This document shows positions 7,266-58,116 of a stretch of 58,116 bases of DNA, piece after piece. The stretch is from a virus: UHGV virus genome UHGV-0195737; one strand, 5' to 3'. Below the pieces are notes generated by a model that saw only the letters and a list, made by a program, of their open reading frames with translations, was not told the origin of the DNA and did no database searches. Each line of letters opens with the position of its first letter. Positions within the stretch are counted from its first letter, which is position 1. The translations under genes and the position numbers were made by a program.

Positions 7266-10200
7266 TTACCATGATCCGGTAATTCGCCCAATCTGGACGC
7301 GTAACACGCTATTTCCATCTCTGACAGAGATTGTTGTGTTCGTCCATTTCATCGCTCCTTCACCGCTTACTGATCCGTAGTTTTCGAATGTACCGGATTT
7401 ATCCAGCTTCCAGCCAGTACTACCGGAAACATAGTTATTTGACTGGATGTAAGATCCAATTTTCGCGTTAGTGATTGAGGCGTCTTTAATAAACGCTTCG
7501 CGCACATACATTGCACCATTTGTGACATAGAAAGGCGTTGTATATGTGCCGTTTGCCGCTGTCATTAATACAAAGCGGTCAGCAAGGAAAATACATTGCG
7601 ATTGCGTACTCGTACCGCTGCCAGTCAAGCCAAGCGAGATCCCGGAAAAATATTTCATGCCGTTGTTGTCTGCGGCGATCTTAACGCTCCACGTTGCCGA
7701 CATGTCGGTTTCAAGGCCAGCGATGGCGGTTTTATTTTCCTCAATTGATACCGATTGCCCCTCGATTGACGCCGTAATACTTTCAATCTGCGTGGCGGTC
7801 GATTCCTTATAGGTTGTAAACGCTTCGCTCCACTCCGTGATCGACGCCTCGTTTGCTTCCAGCGATGCGCTAATTTCCGCAAACTGAGTAGCATTAGCTT
7901 GTTCATGGGTGGCAAGCGCGGATTGCATTTCGGTAATAGCTGCCGCCACATCGTCGTCTATTTGCGCCTGTAGTTGCTCCAGCTTCTGCGCGGTTGCTTG
8001 TTCATTGGTTGCGATCGTCTGATTAGTTTCAGTGATTGCAGCCTCATTCTCATCAATCTGACTTTGCAGGCTATTAAACTGCGTAGCGTTGGCTTTTTCG
8101 TGGGTAGCGAGTGCTTGCTCCATGTTGCTTATTGCTGACGATATATCACCATCTACTTTAGCCTCAAGGTTGCTAATAGATTCAGATGTGGATGATTCCA
8201 GATCGGTGATCGTCTGGTTAATCTCCGTTATGCTTGCCTGAATATCTTCGTTGACCTGGCTTTCTAATTTTTCGATCGACTGGCTTGTCGAACTTTCAAG
8301 CGTTGCAATGGTTTGTTGCAGTTCGGTTACGTTGGCGCTGATTTCGTCATTGACCTTGCTTTCGAGTGTCGTAAGCGCCTGCGCGGTCGCTTCTTTCTCT
8401 GTAGCGATCACAGTGTCGATGCGCTCAATCTCCGCCTTCGTTTCTGCTTTCTGGTTTTTATACTGTGCCGTCAACGTGGTGCGCGTGCTGGTGTTAGCCA
8501 GTGAGTTATTCATAAGCGCAATAGCTGCGTTTTGCAGGCTGGCGCGTGTCTGGATTAGTTCATTTTCCTGTTCAGTTAACTCGACGCTGATTTCGTTGAT
8601 CTGGCTTTCATGTTCTCCAATTCCATCCTCATTGTTTTTCACGCGTTCTTCCAGGTCTGCGGTCGATTCTTTCAGATCGGTAACAGCCTGGTCAATATCT
8701 ACCGTGGTTTGTTTCAGTTCTTCCACATCGCCCATCAAGCCGCCTGTTACCTCGTCGATGGTTTCTTTAATCATGTCCTGAAATTGCTCACCCTCCATAA
8801 CTTCATTCAGCACGGCATCCGTGATTTCTTCGAAGTTTTCGGACGGCTTACCACTGGCTTCGATAAAGTCAGATACGCCGAAAGCGTTTTTTGTGCGCAC
8901 GTAAACGTAATACGTGTGGCCCGTTGCCATCCCGCCAAAAGTCCACTGATAGCCGCGCCCGGAAAATTGCGCTGATGTTGTTACCAGTGAGAAGTCAGTA
9001 ATCTGGTTTTCTCCAGCGTAATAGAATTCGTAAGTAGTATCAGTCGTTAGCGTGCTGTTGCTGATCGGGTAAACAGTCGCCTGAAAAACACCTGGCACCC
9101 AATTAACACCAGTCGGCGCGGCAGGCGCACCAACAATAAGATCTACCAGTGTTTCCGCTCCCTTCATCCCGGTGTCATTGCGCCCACGAATACCAAGCGA
9201 ATAATTACCGCACTCAAGGCCGAAAAAGTCATACCGGTAATTTTGCGTTTCGTAGCTCGCCACCACGCGCCCGTCGGTGTCATAAATGCGGATCTCAAAG
9301 GTTAATGCGCGGGTAGTGGTTTGAGTTTCCCAGGTGGCGCGGCATTGAACTGTTTCCGATCCAATGTTTATCACTTTCAGGTTTTCGATGTTCGGTACAC
9401 GGAAGTGATTCAGCGTGTCGCTGTTAACCTCAAAGATTGCGCCCTCATCGACAACCGCTTGCTTGTTCGGATCGTGCTGCGCGGCCTCAATGGTGTATAC
9501 GCTGTTATTTTCGGTTTCGGCTACGCTAGTGATTCGACATAAAACGGGTTTTGCCGCTTCGGTTGATACAGCAAATACAGTACCGTTCCGAATCCATGCC
9601 GGGGCCGCCGCTAAGGTGATCTCGTTTCCATTCACTCCGGTGATCTGGTGTTTTTTAAATTTACCATCGCTATCGAGCAAGCTGATGGTGTCGCCTGCCG
9701 TAATGTACTCGCTATCAACCTTATCAACCGTTATCACGTTCCCGTTATTCGCCACGATACGACCGCCTAAACGCGCGCCAGCACGGTTATTATCGAGAAT
9801 CTCGATAATATCCCCTGGTGTAAAGTGAATCGCGTCACGGGCCATTTTAAACGTGAATTTCGACGGCTCGCGTTTTGCTGTTTCTATCAGCCATTTGCCC
9901 GCGCGGTACGCTTGCCCGCGTGATGTACAGCCGAACGCCTCCAGTGTGGTTTCATTGTAACCATCGCGGGCGATTAGCTCATCATCCGCTACATACTCTT
10001 TTGATTGCTCCCAGCCGTTTTCCGGATCAGTCCAGGATACAATCACGGCGTTGTAACATTCCGCACGCGCAATGCTTGAACGGGTGAATGCACCATCAAC
10101 GACGTTTGCGTTTGTGATGGTTGCAATCGGATCTTGCGGTGCATCGAGCATTACAGTAAGTGTTTGACCGTCCCATAACGCAATCCCCCGGAACATTCCG

Positions 10201-46417: not shown

Positions 46418-46444
46418 GGCAAAGAAAAGCCGCCATCCGGCGGC
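46418..46444 (-). terminator. Terminator after repressor gene
   Basis: GCCGCC-GGAT-GGCGGC stem followed by TTTTCTTT on minus strand. Confidence 0.55.
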
Positions 46445-46450
46445 TAATGT

Positions 46451-47098
46451 TTATGGCAGGTTTACGATCTTTGCATCCACCACCACGCCAATAATTTTTG
46501 ATTCAGGGTTTAGCGGGATTGGTGGGTACAGCGGATTAAGCGAACGTAAAAGCCTTTGACCTCCATCAATGATTAACTGTTTAAACGTCGGCGTTTGCCC
46601 TTCCTCCAGTTGGGCTATAACCAGTTTGCCGTCAATAGCTGGCGCGTGCGGATCGACAAGTATCATCGTCCCTGCCGGGATACTTAATCCCTGCGGTGCG
46701 TTCATTGACTCACCTTTTGCGACCAGCCAATAACTATCATCCGAACAAATCACGCTCGTGTTAACGTGTGGTAGTAATGCGCGTTTTGCTTCTTCCATGT
46801 AGTTTCCTGCGTCTTTCCAGTCAATAACCGGATAACGTCCCACGTCGAGCGGCGGCGCTCCCGGCAACGTATTTGAAACTGAATCATCGATAACCATCCC
46901 GTCATGAGTGACCGTAAACTGCCGACGACCAAGCGCCCGCATAATCCGCGCAATATCTTCAAGATTTGGCTCGCGGCGACCATTCAGCCAGTGAGATAAG
47001 CCGCCTTTTGTGATCCCCATGAGATCCGCCAATGAATCCTGGCTCATGCCTTGCGCCCGCATGAGTTGTTTTGCTAAGTCATACCATTTTGTTTTCAT
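46451..47098 (-). CDS. CI-like repressor (HTH plus LexA-type S24 peptidase domain)
   Basis: N-terminal HTH (QDSLADLMGITKGGLSHWLNG); C-terminal AKGESM serine motif and downstream Lys. Confidence 0.75.
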   Translation of the reverse strand: MKTKWYDLAKQLMRAQGMSQDSLADLMGITKGGLSHWLNGRREPNLEDIARIMRALGRRQFTVTHDGMVIDDSVSNTLPGAPPLDVGRYPVIDWKDAGNYMEEAKRALLPHVNTSVICSDDSYWLVAKGESMNAPQGLSIPAGTMILVDPHAPAIDGKLVIAQLEEGQTPTFKQLIIDGGQRLLRSLNPLYPPIPLNPESKIIGVVVDAKIVNLP

Positions 47099-47126
47099 AT
47101 CGCTACCCTATCGCCCTAAAAAGTTT

Positions 47127-47222
47127 GATGCAAGTCACAAAATGTATTTTTCAAGCCTTGACCGAAAAACACCATTCTGTAAACTTGCAGACAAGGTAAA
47201 GCCGGACTTGCAAAGACGCAAG
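47127..47222. promoter_or_regulatory. Operator/divergent promoter region
   Basis: Inverted repeats TCAAGcCTTGA, CTTGcagaCAAG, CTTGCaaagacGCAAG, plus TGCAAGTCA/GACTTGCA pair. Confidence 0.4.
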
Positions 47223-47265
47223 AAAAAAGATGAGGGAATAGCACAAAAAGGCGCATACCTTAAAA

Positions 47266-47298
47266 GCTCTTTAAAAACCTGGTGTCGCTGCGAAGCGA
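47266..47298 (+). promoter_or_regulatory. nutR-like site (boxA + boxB hairpin)
   Basis: GCTCTTTAA then 10 nt then TCGCT-GCGA-AGCGA hairpin, upstream of the first plus-strand gene. Confidence 0.4.
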
Positions 47299-47405
47299 AA
47301 AACAAATATCACGCAACGGCGGGATCTGTTGAGCGGTCAATCACTGCTACCTAATGCTAATGGGATACCCGCCCGCGCGTTCATTTTAACCATAGGAGAA
47401 ACACA

Positions 47406-47660
47406 ATGAGTATGCACATGATGAATGAGGCTTGGAAAGTGGAACTTAACAGCCCGATTCAAAAACTTGTCTTAATGGCTCTGGCTGAAAAGGCAGATAA
47501 TCGCCGCCACGCCAGGGTATCACACCAAGAAATCGCAAAAATGTGTGAAATTCCTGTAAGTACGGTGATACTTGCTATCAACGGATTAACACACAAAGGA
47601 TTTATTTGTAACCCTTACCCGGTAAATGACGTTTACCTGGTAATGCTGCCGGAGGAATAG
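47406..47660 (+). CDS. Winged-helix regulatory protein (Cro/CII position)
   Basis: 84 aa; HTH-like segment SHQEIAKMCEIPVSTVILAINGL; first gene of rightward operon. Confidence 0.45.
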   Translation: MSMHMMNEAWKVELNSPIQKLVLMALAEKADNRRHARVSHQEIAKMCEIPVSTVILAINGLTHKGFICNPYPVNDVYLVMLPEE

Positions 47661-47662
47661 AA

Positions 47663-48775
47663 ATGAAGTGGTTTAAGCATGATAGCGATGCGAACCGCGA
47701 TGAAAAACTTCAAAACGTTTTGCTTGATTATGGCCTGGAAGGATACGGGCTTTATTGGTATTGCATCGAGTTAATAGCCTACGAAGTAGATCAACATAAT
47801 CTGACATTCGAACTAAAACACGATGCAAGAATCATTGCCCGGAACGTAGGATCAAGTCCGAAACGTGTAGAAGAAATGATGAGATACTTCATCGAAGTTG
47901 GCTTGTTCGACTGCTCACATGGCGTTGTAAGATGCCTGTCGTTAGCAAAAAGACTTGATCAATCAATGGCTTCGTCAAAAAGCGAATTTAGAGAGGCAAT
48001 TAAAAGGCTAAACGTCAAAAAAAATAAAAAGTTAGATAATCCTTTAGTGGAAGTAAATAATTCACCAGATACAGAAAAAGAAAAACCATGGCACAACCAT
48101 GATGCAGCCATGGCACAACCATGGCACAACCATGGATTAGAAGTAGAAGTAGAAGAAGAAATAGAAACAGAAGAAGAAAAGAAAAATATAAAAAGAAAAG
48201 AAGTCAATCAGGACGGTGACTTTCAGATAAGCGAATCTGCATTGCGTTGCCTGGCTTTCTACAACGAAAAGGCAGGATGCAAATGTCGTGATACTAAGCC
48301 ATTCATCGAACTACTGACAGAAACAAAAACACGTAAGGCATACACGGAGGATGAGATCACATTAGTAATTGAGTGGGCTTTGACGCAATGGCGTAGCCGT
48401 GGTGGAGTGCCTAAGCCTGTTAACATTTGCCGGGTAACTAAGTTTGATGGGTATCTGGCTGATGCTGAACAATGGCGCAAGCTGTCAGCTACTGTAAACG
48501 CTGCCGACGTGGTGGAAGCATTTAACAGCACGTTTGACGGCCTGTTACCACCTGCCGAACTGGATCGGGATATTGAACGTAAGATCCATTCGCTATCTGA
48601 CTACCTGAAAGACAAAAGCGTTGACAGCTTTATTGCTTACTTCCAGAAATTTAAAGCTGATGCGCCGAACTTCTATTTCGGTGAGAATGAAAGCGGCTGG
48701 CTGGCTGATATAGATTTTCTGTTGAAGCCGGAAACGCTCCGCAAGACGCGTAACTTCCAACATATACCATCATGA
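47663..48775 (+). CDS. Replication initiation protein (replisome organiser-like)
   Basis: 370 aa; N-terminal phage replisome-organiser-like region; iterons plus AT-rich tract inside the gene; upstream of DnaB. Confidence 0.6.
   Translation: MKWFKHDSDANRDEKLQNVLLDYGLEGYGLYWYCIELIAYEVDQHNLTFELKHDARIIARNVGSSPKRVEEMMRYFIEVGLFDCSHGVVRCLSLAKRLDQSMASSKSEFREAIKRLNVKKNKKLDNPLVEVNNSPDTEKEKPWHNHDAAMAQPWHNHGLEVEVEEEIETEEEKKNIKRKEVNQDGDFQISESALRCLAFYNEKAGCKCRDTKPFIELLTETKTRKAYTEDEITLVIEWALTQWRSRGGVPKPVNICRVTKFDGYLADAEQWRKLSATVNAADVVEAFNSTFDGLLPPAELDRDIERKIHSLSDYLKDKSVDSFIAYFQKFKADAPNFYFGENESGWLADIDFLLKPETLRKTRNFQHIPS
48086..48200. repeat. Putative origin: iterons plus AT/purine-rich tract
   Basis: CCATGGCACAA x3 plus degenerate copy, then GAAGTAGAAG...AAAAATATAAAAAG. 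Confidence 0.45.
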
Positions 48776-48899
48776 ATTACCAAAAATCCAAAATTACCCA
48801 CAAAACAAGCTCACCAGCGAGCTAAATCGCATTGGGTGCTACACTTGCTTACCTTTTTGCGATTAGCTCGTCAGAGAGCGTTACAGAGAGGATTTTAAA

Positions 48900-49001
48900 A
48901 TGGACGGTAAACACGTTTTCGCCCTGGCTTTTGCCATCGCTGCGGCAATCGCTGTTAACGTCGCCTTGTTCGGCGGTTTGTTCCTTCTAGTCAATCCATA
49001 A
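48900..49001 (+). CDS. Putative hydrophobic microprotein (33 aa)
   Basis: MDGKHVFALAFAIAAAIAVNVALFGGLFLLVNP; SD GAGAGG. Confidence 0.3.
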   Translation: MDGKHVFALAFAIAAAIAVNVALFGGLFLLVNP

Positions 49002-49133
49002 CCTACCTACCAGTCTGTAAATCGAAAATTAGCCACCTGATAGCGTTTCTGACGCAATAAGACACTGCAACCTGTGCAAACGGGTTACGCGGTGGGATTT
49101 TTGCGTTGTAGCGCGTTTTACGGAGAAATTACA

Positions 49134-49904
49134 ATGTCTGAATTAATGGTTTTTGATAACGTTAAAATGAATAGTATTGAAATTTCAGAGTTGGTTGGTA
49201 AGCGTCATGATAACGTAAAACGCACTATCGAGACGCTTGCTAATAATGGGATTATCCGACTTCCTCAAATTGAGGTTTTCGGAAAAATCAATAACTTAGG
49301 ATTGATTCGTGGCGTGGACGCTTACGTTTTTGAAGGGGAGGAAGGCAAGCGAGATAGTATTATTGTGGTCGCACAGCTTTGCCCTGAACTTACGGCGCGG
49401 ATCGTTGACCGCTGGCAGGAACTTGAAAACGCAGTCCGGCAAAATGCTGTTCCAAATTACGGTAACACACAGATCAGTAATGTTCTTGCTTTTGCTGAAA
49501 CGGCGGGCCGAATGCTGAATATGAGTAATTCAGGTAAGTTAGGTATGCTACAGAAGATTGAGAAGGAATATAATATTCCTCCTATCCTTCCGCATTACGC
49601 TATTGACGCTCCTTCTGATGCTGTGGACGGATCAAGCCGCGTGACCAAATCACTGACAGCATTGTTAGAAGAAAATAACGTTGGCATGACTGCGCGTGAA
49701 GTTTACCCAATCCTTGAACGCAAAGGCATTGTCGATCGCAAGTATCGTAAAGCAAAATGCGGAGAAAAAAGATTCTGGAATGTAACTGTGTATGGTCTGC
49801 GATACGGAAAAAATATAACCAACCCATCTAATCAGAGAGAAACACAGCCGCATTTTTATGAATCAAGATTTAAAGAGTTATTGAATATTATTTTTTCTGA
49901 ATGA
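49134..49904 (+). CDS. Rha-family phage regulatory protein
   Basis: N-terminal SELVGKRHDNVKRTIETL matches Rha family signature; SD GGAGAA. Confidence 0.6.
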   Translation: MSELMVFDNVKMNSIEISELVGKRHDNVKRTIETLANNGIIRLPQIEVFGKINNLGLIRGVDAYVFEGEEGKRDSIIVVAQLCPELTARIVDRWQELENAVRQNAVPNYGNTQISNVLAFAETAGRMLNMSNSGKLGMLQKIEKEYNIPPILPHYAIDAPSDAVDGSSRVTKSLTALLEENNVGMTAREVYPILERKGIVDRKYRKAKCGEKRFWNVTVYGLRYGKNITNPSNQRETQPHFYESRFKELLNIIFSE

Positions 49905-51074: not shown

Positions 51075-52496
51075 ATGATAACTGAGCAAGTAAACTCATT
51101 GCGGCAAGAAAGGGAATCGGCGGTTATTGGTGGACTTCTGTTAGGCGGGCTTACCCCTAACGCGCAAGATGTTCTTGCTACACTCGATCCAGAAGTTTTC
51201 ACTATTCCGCTATACAGACGGGCGTTCGAAATTATCCGGGCGCAAGCCAGAAACAGAAATCTCATCGATGCGTTATTGGTTGGCGATGAAATCGGTAACG
51301 AAAACTTCATACCGCTGATGCAAACGGCGCGATCGTGTCCTTCGGCTGCCAACCTGAAAGGGTATGCCGAATTATTGCAGGAAGAACACCAGCGGCGGCA
51401 AATGTTGGACCTGATAGAAGATATTCGCTACAAACTGGAAACGGGTACGCTTGAAGTTGTCAGGGAAACGATGAAAGATTTTGATTCCCGGTATTCAAAA
51501 TTAAAAGTAACGAAAGGCGAAATCCTCCCGGTGCTGTTGCGCGACGCGGTGCAGGAATACACGGAAGTGCTAAGTAAGCGCATGGAATGCGGCGTAAACT
51601 CCGACAACATCAAAACAGGGATTGACCCACTCGACGAAATGTTAGGCGGCATTAACGCCACTGATTTAGTGCTCATCGCCGGACGTCCGGGATCTGGTAA
51701 ATCGGCGTTAGCGTTGGCAATTGCCCGCGCGGCGGCTGAGAGACCTTACCCTGGCGGCGAAGGAAATCGTGTCGGTGTTTTGCTCTTTACGCTTGAAATG
51801 TCGCTCGATCAAATAACTGAGCGGGCCATCGCTGGTGCGGGGAATTTATCAACGGATTGTTTGCGTAATCCGGTAAAACTTGACGATGAGGGGTGGGCGC
51901 ACGTCGCCCAGGGTATGAGCGCCCTCGCCGATCTCGACGTATGGATTGTTGACGCATCGCAGTTAACGGTCGAGGAAATACGCGCCACCACCGAACGTAT
52001 GAAACAGGACCATCCCAACCTGGGAATGGTAATGATTGACTACATCGGGTTAATGAAGCTGGCTAAGGCCGAACGTCATGATCTTGCCGTAGGGCAATTG
52101 TCGCGGTCATTGAAAATGATGGCGAAGGAATTGCGCGTACCAGTGGCGGCGCTGGCGCAATTATCCCGCCGCGTTGAGGAACGACCGAACAAGCGCCCGA
52201 ACAATTCTGATCTGCGTGATTCCGGTAATCTGGAGCAAGATGCGGACCGGATCATCATGGTCTACCGTGATGGCTACTACAACGAACAATCTGTTGCCCG
52301 CGAATATATGGAGATCATCGTTTCAAAAAACCGTCACGGGAAAACGGGCACTGTTTACCAGCGGTTTGACGACAACGGCAATATCTTACCATGTGACCAG
52401 GCCCGCGCGGCGTCCGCTTGCATCCAGTCAATGCAACAACGTCCGGCGGCAAGCCGATTCTCCCCACGAAACAACCAGAATAACTCATCCTTTTAA
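51075..52496 (+). CDS. dnaB: Replicative DNA helicase (DnaB family)
   Basis: Walker A GRPGSGKS, Walker B LGMVMIDY; 473 aa. Confidence 0.85.
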   Translation: MITEQVNSLRQERESAVIGGLLLGGLTPNAQDVLATLDPEVFTIPLYRRAFEIIRAQARNRNLIDALLVGDEIGNENFIPLMQTARSCPSAANLKGYAELLQEEHQRRQMLDLIEDIRYKLETGTLEVVRETMKDFDSRYSKLKVTKGEILPVLLRDAVQEYTEVLSKRMECGVNSDNIKTGIDPLDEMLGGINATDLVLIAGRPGSGKSALALAIARAAAERPYPGGEGNRVGVLLFTLEMSLDQITERAIAGAGNLSTDCLRNPVKLDDEGWAHVAQGMSALADLDVWIVDASQLTVEEIRATTERMKQDHPNLGMVMIDYIGLMKLAKAERHDLAVGQLSRSLKMMAKELRVPVAALAQLSRRVEERPNKRPNNSDLRDSGNLEQDADRIIMVYRDGYYNEQSVAREYMEIIVSKNRHGKTGTVYQRFDDNGNILPCDQARAASACIQSMQQRPAASRFSPRNNQNNSSF

Positions 52497-57111: not shown

Positions 57112-57255
57112 TCACTCAAAGGCTTTATTAATCCGCTCCTTATGTCCTTTTACAGCAAATAAATAATTACCTCCCTGTTTTTGTATCTTCTCTGCAATAT
57201 CTTTCTGGCAACCCATCGCATCAGTTGTGATAATTTCACCTTTAATATCCAACAT
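57112..57255 (-). pseudogene. ISAs1-family (H-repeat-associated) transposase remnant
   Basis: 48-aa fragment [27 protein letters not shown] matches conserved ISAs1 transposase core. Confidence 0.5.
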
Positions 57256-57493
57256 GTTAGTATCAATTATTGAACATAAAATGTAAATTATTTAGTGCAA
57301 AAAATCGGCGCACCGTGTTCTTTCCCATATTCCTAATATGGCAACTTTAAGTTATCGCCGTCTATACTTATAGAAATTTCATCAGGGGTGACGTAAATAG
57401 AATTTTTTTCATCCTCAATTGCCCATAACTGATTAATAAAAAAGTGTTTTTTCATCTAATAACAAATTATTACATGTAGTAAAATTATTAATA

Positions 57494-57961
57494 TCAAAAA
57501 AAATCATCAGCACAATTAATTTTTAAATTTAAAAAATAAAGAAAAATATTATTGATTGATTTGAGTGTAAACCACTTGTCATTAACAAATTTATAGCCAG
57601 ATGGTTTTATAAAATAATAATTATCTCCTGGTATAAAGGCATACATATCATTTAAGGTTATACTCAACAAAAAACTACGACCTGGTTTAATAGTATTCCA
57701 CCGTTCAGGATTCGTATTAATTTCAAAAGGACATGAACCACCTAAGTAGTCCAACGTGATATTCCCAGAGTTGATTCTGAATGGTTTTTTGCATATCGCA
57801 TCATATTCATCTCCTTTTCCATCTTTTACTTTCATAGGTAGATAATATTTAGAAAAAAAATACGTGGTAGAGCTATTGTTAGTAAAGGTTATGTTAGCAA
57901 AAATCCTGTTATTTTTTTTACTCATAGCTAATTGAGCATTGACATCCGCTATATAATTCAT
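57494..57961 (-). CDS. Hypothetical protein in AT-rich flank
   Basis: 155-aa ORF, very AT-rich, Asn/Lys/Phe-rich. Confidence 0.35.
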   Translation of the reverse strand: MNYIADVNAQLAMSKKNNRIFANITFTNNSSTTYFFSKYYLPMKVKDGKGDEYDAICKKPFRINSGNITLDYLGGSCPFEINTNPERWNTIKPGRSFLLSITLNDMYAFIPGDNYYFIKPSGYKFVNDKWFTLKSINNIFLYFLNLKINCADDFF

Positions 57962-58116
57962 ATGATTGTATTTTTTCTTACACTCATCATAATTTTCGAT
58001 AGGATAAATTAATGGCCTTCCTTTGATATCTCTCTCAAGCCCAAACCCGTATTTTTTATTAAAACCATTTCATCCGCAGTCGATTGAAAGGAATAGAAAA
58101 ATATAATATTTACGAT

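Follow-up and report, generated by a model that had tools for sequence, protein, structure and literature searches.

A gene in the early region of a temperate phage carries, in its interior, an array of short tandem repeats followed by a purine-rich tract, and the question raised by this locus is whether the element serves the phage as its replication origin, as a DNA site of another kind, or only as a stretch of coding sequence. The window, i.e. the whole stretch of 58,116 nucleotides of viral DNA that was analysed (UHGV virus genome UHGV-0195737), had been read in a first-pass annotation as holding an origin embedded in the initiator gene, in the manner of lambda. Based on the comparison of this locus with its relatives we propose that the region of about 47998-48205 is probably the replication origin of the phage, situated where the phage's own initiator gene encodes the linker between its domains.

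The putative initiator gene, its repeat array and flanking tracts

The putative replication initiator gene occupies 47663-48775 of the plus strand as an open reading frame of 370 aa, supported by matches in Pfam and PHROG. Its N-terminal part (47663-47962, plus strand) encodes a Lin1244_N domain (PF14297, formerly DUF4373), which is matched at aa 3-85 with a score of 43 bits (cutoff 25; E 8e-11) and which we take as the candidate iteron-binding module; relatives appear in RefSeq as 'Lin1244/Lin1753 domain-containing protein'. The AF2 model of this domain, of moderate quality (pLDDT 70) and generic in fold, is a winged helix resembling the origin-binding domains of ORC/Cdc6 and of plasmid RepA. 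The protein matches phrog_20981 (E 2e-116), and PHROG families named 'replication initiation protein' and 'replication initiation O-like' match aa 119-367. The C-terminal domain (48218-48772, plus strand; aa ~190-365), recognised by its conservation and by a 'replication initiation O-like' match on aa 173-364, would recruit the replication machinery; its match to Phg_2220_C is weak and sub-threshold. Searches of NCBIfam and of PDB sequences with the protein gave no match. The array and the tract lie in the linker between the Lin1244_N domain and the conserved C-domain, and in alignments this linker is the variable, indel-rich part of the protein.

The locus is the early-right replication operon of a temperate phage. 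A cI-type repressor gene lies divergently on its 5' side (46451-47098, minus strand), an 84-aa protein with a Pfam HTH_36 match is encoded immediately upstream of the initiator gene (47406-47660, plus strand), and downstream of the initiator gene follow a Rha-like regulator, a metallophosphatase-like protein and a phage-encoded replicative helicase of the DnaB family (51075-52496, plus strand), the latter identified in Pfam by DnaB_C (E 1e-76) and by the DnaB N-terminal domain. Judging by this context, the helicase is likely the machine loaded at the putative origin. The sequence just downstream of cI (46428-46445) contains a GC-rich hairpin (AGCCGCC-ATCC-GGCGGCT), and the T-runs that flank it on the two strands give it the look of a bidirectional terminator; in the related phage mEp515 a terminator is annotated at the corresponding position.

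The array spans 48086-48135 on the plus strand and reads CCATGGCACAA CCATGATGCAG CCATGGCACAA CCATGGCACAA CCATGG. It consists of five CATG-centred units, whose cores start at 48087, 48098, 48109, 48120 and 48131 with a step of exactly 11 bp, and the core CCATGG is a 6-bp palindrome. The sequence bears out the earlier count of three perfect 11-bp units (48086-96, 48108-18 and 48119-29) and one degenerate unit (48097-107), to which a partial fifth unit at 48130-35, uncounted at that time, is to be added. Tandem Repeats Finder (TRF) reports the array at 48084-48135 with a period of 11, 4.7 copies and a score of 76, which is the top tandem-repeat score of the 58-kb window, no other tandem array of comparable score being available there as a second origin candidate. 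The exact 11-mer has no copy outside the array in the 58 kb, and matches with up to two mismatches elsewhere in the window are at the level of chance (16 found, 18.7 expected). The unit of the window type, CCATGGCACAACCATG, was found arrayed in only two IMG/VR contigs, the remaining 11 matches being single. The first-pass annotation had also placed both the repeats and a purine/AT-rich tract within the open reading frame of 47663-48775, and both are indeed there; the translation runs ...KPWHNHDAAMAQPWHNHGLEVEVEEEIETEEEKK..., in which the peptide PWHNH recurs and is followed by a Glu-rich run.

The purine-/AT-rich tract, a candidate DNA-unwinding element by its composition, stability and conservation, occupies 48136-48205 of the plus strand. 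It is 86% purine on that strand, the unique maximum among all 70-nt windows, and its GC content of 24%, compared with 47% overall, places it in the lowest 0.5%. Its nearest-neighbour stability is -65.7 kcal/mol per 60 nt as against a mean of -83.4 (sd 5.7), i.e. about 3 sd less stable, and it has a sub-periodicity of ~6 bp (TAGAAG; TRF period 6/12/18). Nearly every relative has a homologous tract (GATAAGATTAGATTAGATAAGA / AGAAGAGAATAGAA) behind its array. The left flank of the array (47998-48085, plus strand) is A-rich as well, lies with a GC fraction of 0.29-0.31 among the lowest-GC 70-nt windows, and resembles the purine tract on the right at ~72% similarity (repeat D2); by alignment it is in part an insertion specific to the window-type gene.

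Relatives and the co-variation of repeats with the N-domain

MagusPhagus and mEp515, two Escherichia phages of the 'mEpimmI' group, for which mEp021 is typical, are the closest named relatives, and their proteins are 75% and 73% identical, respectively, to that of the window; of 5,426 complete E. coli genomes, 35 contain related prophages. Coliphages of this mEp021-like group are found in human faeces as frequently as lambdoid phages (PMC11893012). An equivalent element stands at the matching position in relatives and differs in sequence: in MagusPhagus and mEp515 an 11-bp array of four units GGTCATGAnnn occupies precisely the aligned position, and has in common with the array of the window only the yCATGr core and the 11-bp register.

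In mEp021 itself the gene has the same operon position as in the window and a near-identical C-domain, combined with an HTH_36-like N-domain. At the junction of the two domains, inside the replication gene, it carries four repeats of 22/23 bp (GGTAGTGGCACAAAGCAACCGGG / GGTAGTGGCAGAGAGCAACCAG) at 2806-2893 of the mEp021 locus (L003, MH706966.1), which form a perfect 45-bp duplication and are probably the origin of that phage. These repeats are neither annotated in MH706966.1 nor mentioned in the paper on the mEp021 group, which is silent on an origin or iterons (PMC11893012). The C-domain is nearly invariant (~87-91% nucleotide identity) in phages of the mEp021 group that have another N-domain and other iterons. 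As the C-domain is constant while the N-domain and the repeats differ, 'N-domain plus repeats' acts as an exchangeable module, and the window and mEp021 differ by a swap of this module; lambdoid O genes are likewise known for exchanging N-domain plus repeats on a constant C-domain. The heptamer GGCACAA is common to the unit of the window (48089-48095) and to the mEp021 repeat (2813-2819 of L003), where it is read in a different frame; a rough estimate puts the probability of such sharing by chance at ~0.02, and the heptamer shows no correlation with the type of HTH_36 protein.

To reach beyond the coliphages, IMG/VR and the GTDB species genomes were scanned with alignments of the N-domain, which yielded ~200 loci, of which ~150 distinct ones were compared; each scan of IMG/VR found 360-440 relatives. 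With a tandem array defined by TRF as a period of 8-25 and at least 2.8 copies within the 330 nt after the N-domain, arrays were present in 50 of 91 distinct loci, compared with 27 of 1,153 control windows drawn from the same loci, and a period of 11 was by far the commonest. CATG is ~4-fold denser in this target region, and the spacings from one CATG to the next are multiples of one helical turn (11 bp in 93 cases, 21 in 43, 22 in 19 and 10 in 6, out of 179), whereas those of the controls are flat.

Two repeat types prevail, (G/A)TCATGA(C/T) and type-B, (G/C/A)TCCCGA(C/G)A, the latter with inverted units (TCGGGA) also present, and both share a TCnnGA dyad frame, often GTCnnGAC. Rarer types (TCAGGAGTGAG, TCCGGGAA, ATAACAAAGTT, ATGGCAAA and (T/G)ATACAAA) mostly keep a period of ~11 bp. 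The repeat type follows the subfamily of the N-domain without exception among the 150 distinct loci: N-domains ending in ...RLDxSMT are followed by 73 CATG arrays and no TCCCGA, and those ending in ...R(T/A)DEYT by 53 TCCCGA/TCGGGA arrays and no CATG, counts which, the loci being phylogenetically related, represent two large clades and a few variants rather than independent events. The CCATGG variant is found with a single N-domain variant, 99-100% identical among its carriers, which are the window and three further loci (L004, L007 and L008).

In two loci (L059, 2501-3532, and L093, 2501-3625) the Lin1244_N domain and the element are separated by an inserted T5orf172 (GIY-YIG-like) domain, and array and tract are shifted together by ~300 bp downstream and are intact; the two move as a unit. 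A contig of a Geobacteraceae MAG (L105, ~2870-2990) has an array of unusual length, ~11 units of GTCCCGACA(A/G)(A/T)(C/G)T with an 11-bp period, inside its Lin1244_N gene. In three loci from Treponema and Lachnospiraceae MAGs (L111, L112 and L113) neither a repeat array nor a purine tract was found after the domain, and these copies may be domesticated or non-replicative, or may have their origin elsewhere. None of 50,697 phage records is a characterised phage with this N-domain. Enterococcus phage EF62phi (NC_017732.1) encodes at 7707-7976 a distant Lin1244_N-like 'replication initiation protein' that is 34% identical to the Clostridium-type domain; it is maintained as a linear extrachromosomal prophage and could be an experimentally tractable member of the Lin1244_N family.

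Constraint on the DNA of the element

The codons of the element indicate that it is selected as DNA and not as protein. Since its period of 11 bp is no multiple of 3, successive units are read in different frames, so that CATG yields His (CAT) in one frame and Met (ATG) in another, and is otherwise divided between the codons of Pro-Trp or Ser-x, and in relatives the peptides differ (PWHNHDAAMAQPWHNHG vs GHDRVMTGSGKGHE) while the DNA core persists. Codon use was compared in 37 distinct marine relatives, whose N-domains are 65-72% identical to that of the window and whose C-termini are unrelated, with the N-domain as the internal control for relatedness. Of 92 N-domain columns with a conserved residue, none was confined to one codon, and the top codon had a mean share of 0.585; in the element, 7 of 12 such columns used a single codon and the mean share was 0.925 (Fisher p = 4e-8). 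Val is encoded there by GTC in 39 of 40 cases (background 13%), Leu by TTA in 27/27 (17%), Arg by AGA in 35/35 (36%) and Pro by CCC in 11/11 (0%), and the same uniformity holds for His (CAT, 35/35), Gln (CAA, 33/33), Asp (GAT, 57/57) and Lys (AAG, 27/27). The second subfamily, i.e. the type-B relatives, shows the same trend, with a top-codon share of 0.62 in the N-domain vs 0.85 in the element.

The freezing of synonymous sites spans the repeats and the purine tract alike, giving the consensus ...rTCATGACnnArTCATGACTrAATCAGAwAAAsyCATGCAAGATAAGATTAGATTAGATAAGAATAGA. In TCATGA arrays the sole degenerate copy is the one whose frame would give a TCA|TGA stop; it appears as TCAGGA, TCAAGA, TCATGT or TCATGG, altered no more than the avoidance of the stop needs. 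The CCATGG of the window is open in all three frames, which may be why its array is nearly perfect.

The putative origin, its alternatives and its known counterparts

Everything expected of an iteron origin at the level of sequence was found at this locus: five units, an adjoining purine/AT tract, a winged-helix N-domain encoded by the same gene, and a repeat type that varies together with the subfamily of that domain. On this comparative basis the reading of the element as an origin inside the initiator gene gains support. We propose that the winged-helix N-domain (Lin1244_N/DUF4373) would bind the five CATG-centred units, and that the spacing of one unit to each turn of the helix (11 bp) would align the bound proteins on one face of the DNA, where they could build a nucleoprotein complex comparable to the O-some of lambda. 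The strain of this complex would be released by melting of the adjacent 70-bp purine/AT-rich tract, and the C-domain would then recruit, by direct contact or via a partner, the DnaB-type helicase that the phage itself encodes. From the anatomy of the element and from its conservation we infer that the protein binds the array, that the tract melts, that the helicase is recruited and that the element acts as an origin. For a winged-helix protein, a dyad core of 6 bp repeated at 11-bp intervals is an uncommon kind of target, and the literature that we searched contained nothing functional, i.e. no replication, binding or unwinding experiment, for any DUF4373/Lin1244_N protein.

It is unlikely, in our estimate, that the element is a cis-acting site with a role other than that of an origin, such as an operator at which the initiator itself (autoregulation), the HTH_36 protein or some host factor controls transcription through the replication operon, or a site at which the DNA undergoes another transaction. 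Selection at the nucleotide level and co-variation reveal, by themselves, a cis site linked to the N-domain and not what that site does, and the HTH_36 gene directly upstream would offer a candidate regulator. An operator has, however, no obvious use for the adjoining and equally conserved purine tract of low stability, and both the position of the element between the domains and its polarity match the origin of lambda, while mEp021 has classic 23-bp iterons at the very same junction.

The HTH_36 protein deserves a closer look in this respect, as its 84 aa resemble the N-domains of O-like initiators and are devoid of a C-domain. Its reading frame lies upstream of the initiator gene in all relatives of the E. 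coli type and in mEp021, and is undetectable in the marine loci that keep an array; the copy of the window is 93% identical to copies found beside TCATGA arrays and 64% identical to the L004 copy, which lies beside a CCATGG array. Because the protein is missing from marine array loci and its similarity does not follow the iteron type, we rejected it as a general partner of the array; it is probably not the array's binder, and could be a regulator or a replication cofactor.

Nor does another origin candidate stand out in the window. DnaA boxes with one mismatch (TTATCCACA) number 18 as against 15.2 expected, which is no enrichment, and 47900-48300 contains none, the nearest being at 48794; a DnaA-dependent origin was accordingly rejected. 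The block of 57200-58116 is very AT-rich and includes several of the least stable 60-mers of the window, has no repeats and holds a minus-strand ORF of 155 aa (57494-57961). Being coding-like DNA of the minus strand that lacks repeats, it was dismissed as a second origin and looks like a foreign accessory ('moron') gene. Promoter-like sites, considered as evidence of an internal promoter, were at chance level (5 found, 5.2 expected).

Much less probable still is that the tandem palindromes act as hairpins of single-stranded DNA or RNA, either as a priming or loading signal or as mRNA structure, instead of as duplex binding sites. As single-stranded DNA both strands do fold better than shuffled sequence, with z values of -3.9 and -4.2 in the window and -6.0 in MagusPhagus, and the minus strand has a weak terminator-like hairpin call at 48103-48085. 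Good folding is nevertheless automatic where neighbouring cores are palindromic, and this call, the sole terminator-like one over the array, is a by-product of the palindromes, so that a terminator was rejected. Most type-B arrays, composed of direct GTCCCGACA repeats, are non-palindromic and yet keep the 11-bp phasing and the position, and an RNA element was rejected as no Rfam match was obtained at E <= 1 on 47000-49200. Hairpins could, moreover, coexist with an origin instead of replacing it. Least probable of all is that the repeat is a feature of the protein, a His-rich or low-complexity repeat or a slippage-prone disordered linker, whose DNA has no function, for although PWHNH recurs ahead of the Glu-rich run and the alignment shows that linkers tolerate repeats and indels, the units are read in different frames, the DNA core outlives changes of the peptide, synonymous sites are frozen in the element and free in the adjacent N-domain, and one unit is degenerate only as far as the avoidance of a stop requires.

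Returning to the origin that we favour, the likeness to lambda drawn by the first-pass annotation holds for the layout and its polarity and fails for the homology of the proteins and the type of iteron. In lambda the origin is found midway along the initiator gene, with tandem initiator-binding repeats and, transcriptionally downstream of them, an A-rich, purine-biased tract that melts; in O of lambda and of Stx phages the N-terminal part together with the repeats is the specificity module, the C-terminal part recruits the helicase machinery, and the number of repeats varies among related origins (PMC7466680). The tract at 48136-48205 matches the A-rich tract of lambda in position and in strand polarity. 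Unlike these shared traits, the proteins show no sequence similarity (BLASTP E = 1.1), and lambda O matches Phage_rep_O (PF04492) while the protein of the window matches only Lin1244_N (PF14297). The iterons of lambda are inverted repeats of 18 bp set 20-24 bp apart from start to start, whereas the window has abutting units of 11 bp, each around a dyad core of 6 bp, with one unit to each helical turn. Since sequence similarity is lacking, the N-domain belongs to another family, and the units are of 11 bp and not 18-bp inverted repeats, the protein is no member of the lambda O family. The phage also has its own DnaB-type helicase, in contrast to lambda, which uses a P-type hijacker of the host DnaB.

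Phage P22 combines an O-like initiator that contains the origin (gene 18) with a phage-encoded DnaB-type helicase (gene 12), in a different protein family. The ori of satellite P4 has 8-bp iterons phased at about one helical turn, bound by its primase-helicase and located outside the gene of that protein. RepA_N initiators join a winged-helix NTD and short semi-palindromic repeats to a lineage-specific CTD (PMC7145576). Those of plasmids and satellites (pSK41, pTZ2162 and PLE RepA) are functional analogues whose resemblance to the protein of the window is limited to the generic fold, as the latter has no Pfam RepA_N (PF06970) match and the sequences and geometry of the repeats differ. The element would, then, be an iteron-type origin within an initiator gene, which is a known kind; it extends the lambda paradigm and introduces no new principle.

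Looking across the family, we lean, somewhat beyond even odds, toward a broader reading in which Lin1244_N/DUF4373 is a widespread class of origin-binding winged-helix domains, whose site always travels with it inside the gene, as a cassette that has been recombined onto many C-domains. Such a cassette would consist of 3 to ~11 units of a dyad-like TCnnGA core set 11 bp apart, with GTCATGAC, GTCCCGAC/GTCGGGAC or, in the window, CCATGG as cores, followed by a conserved purine 'AGAAGAGAATAGA' unwinding tract, and would be distributed among phages and prophages of Proteobacteria, Bacteroidota, Spirochaetota, Firmicutes and others. CCATGG would in that case represent a symmetric change of specificity, which would also abolish the in-frame stop problem of TCATGA and so make a perfect array possible.

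The compactness of these putative initiator-plus-origin cassettes is such that they could serve phage-derived replicons, and an 11-bp-phased array with a purine tract right after a Lin1244_N domain may be offered as a rule for annotation. The element is also a natural case of overlapping constraints, in which a DNA site is maintained in all three reading frames and a stop codon in frame is avoided as well. For the mEpimmI (mEp021-like) coliphages, for which no origin has been described before (PMC11893012), our analysis predicts one. For the hundreds of phage and prophage genes in which this uncharacterised domain is found, it suggests a function, namely the recognition of the origin.
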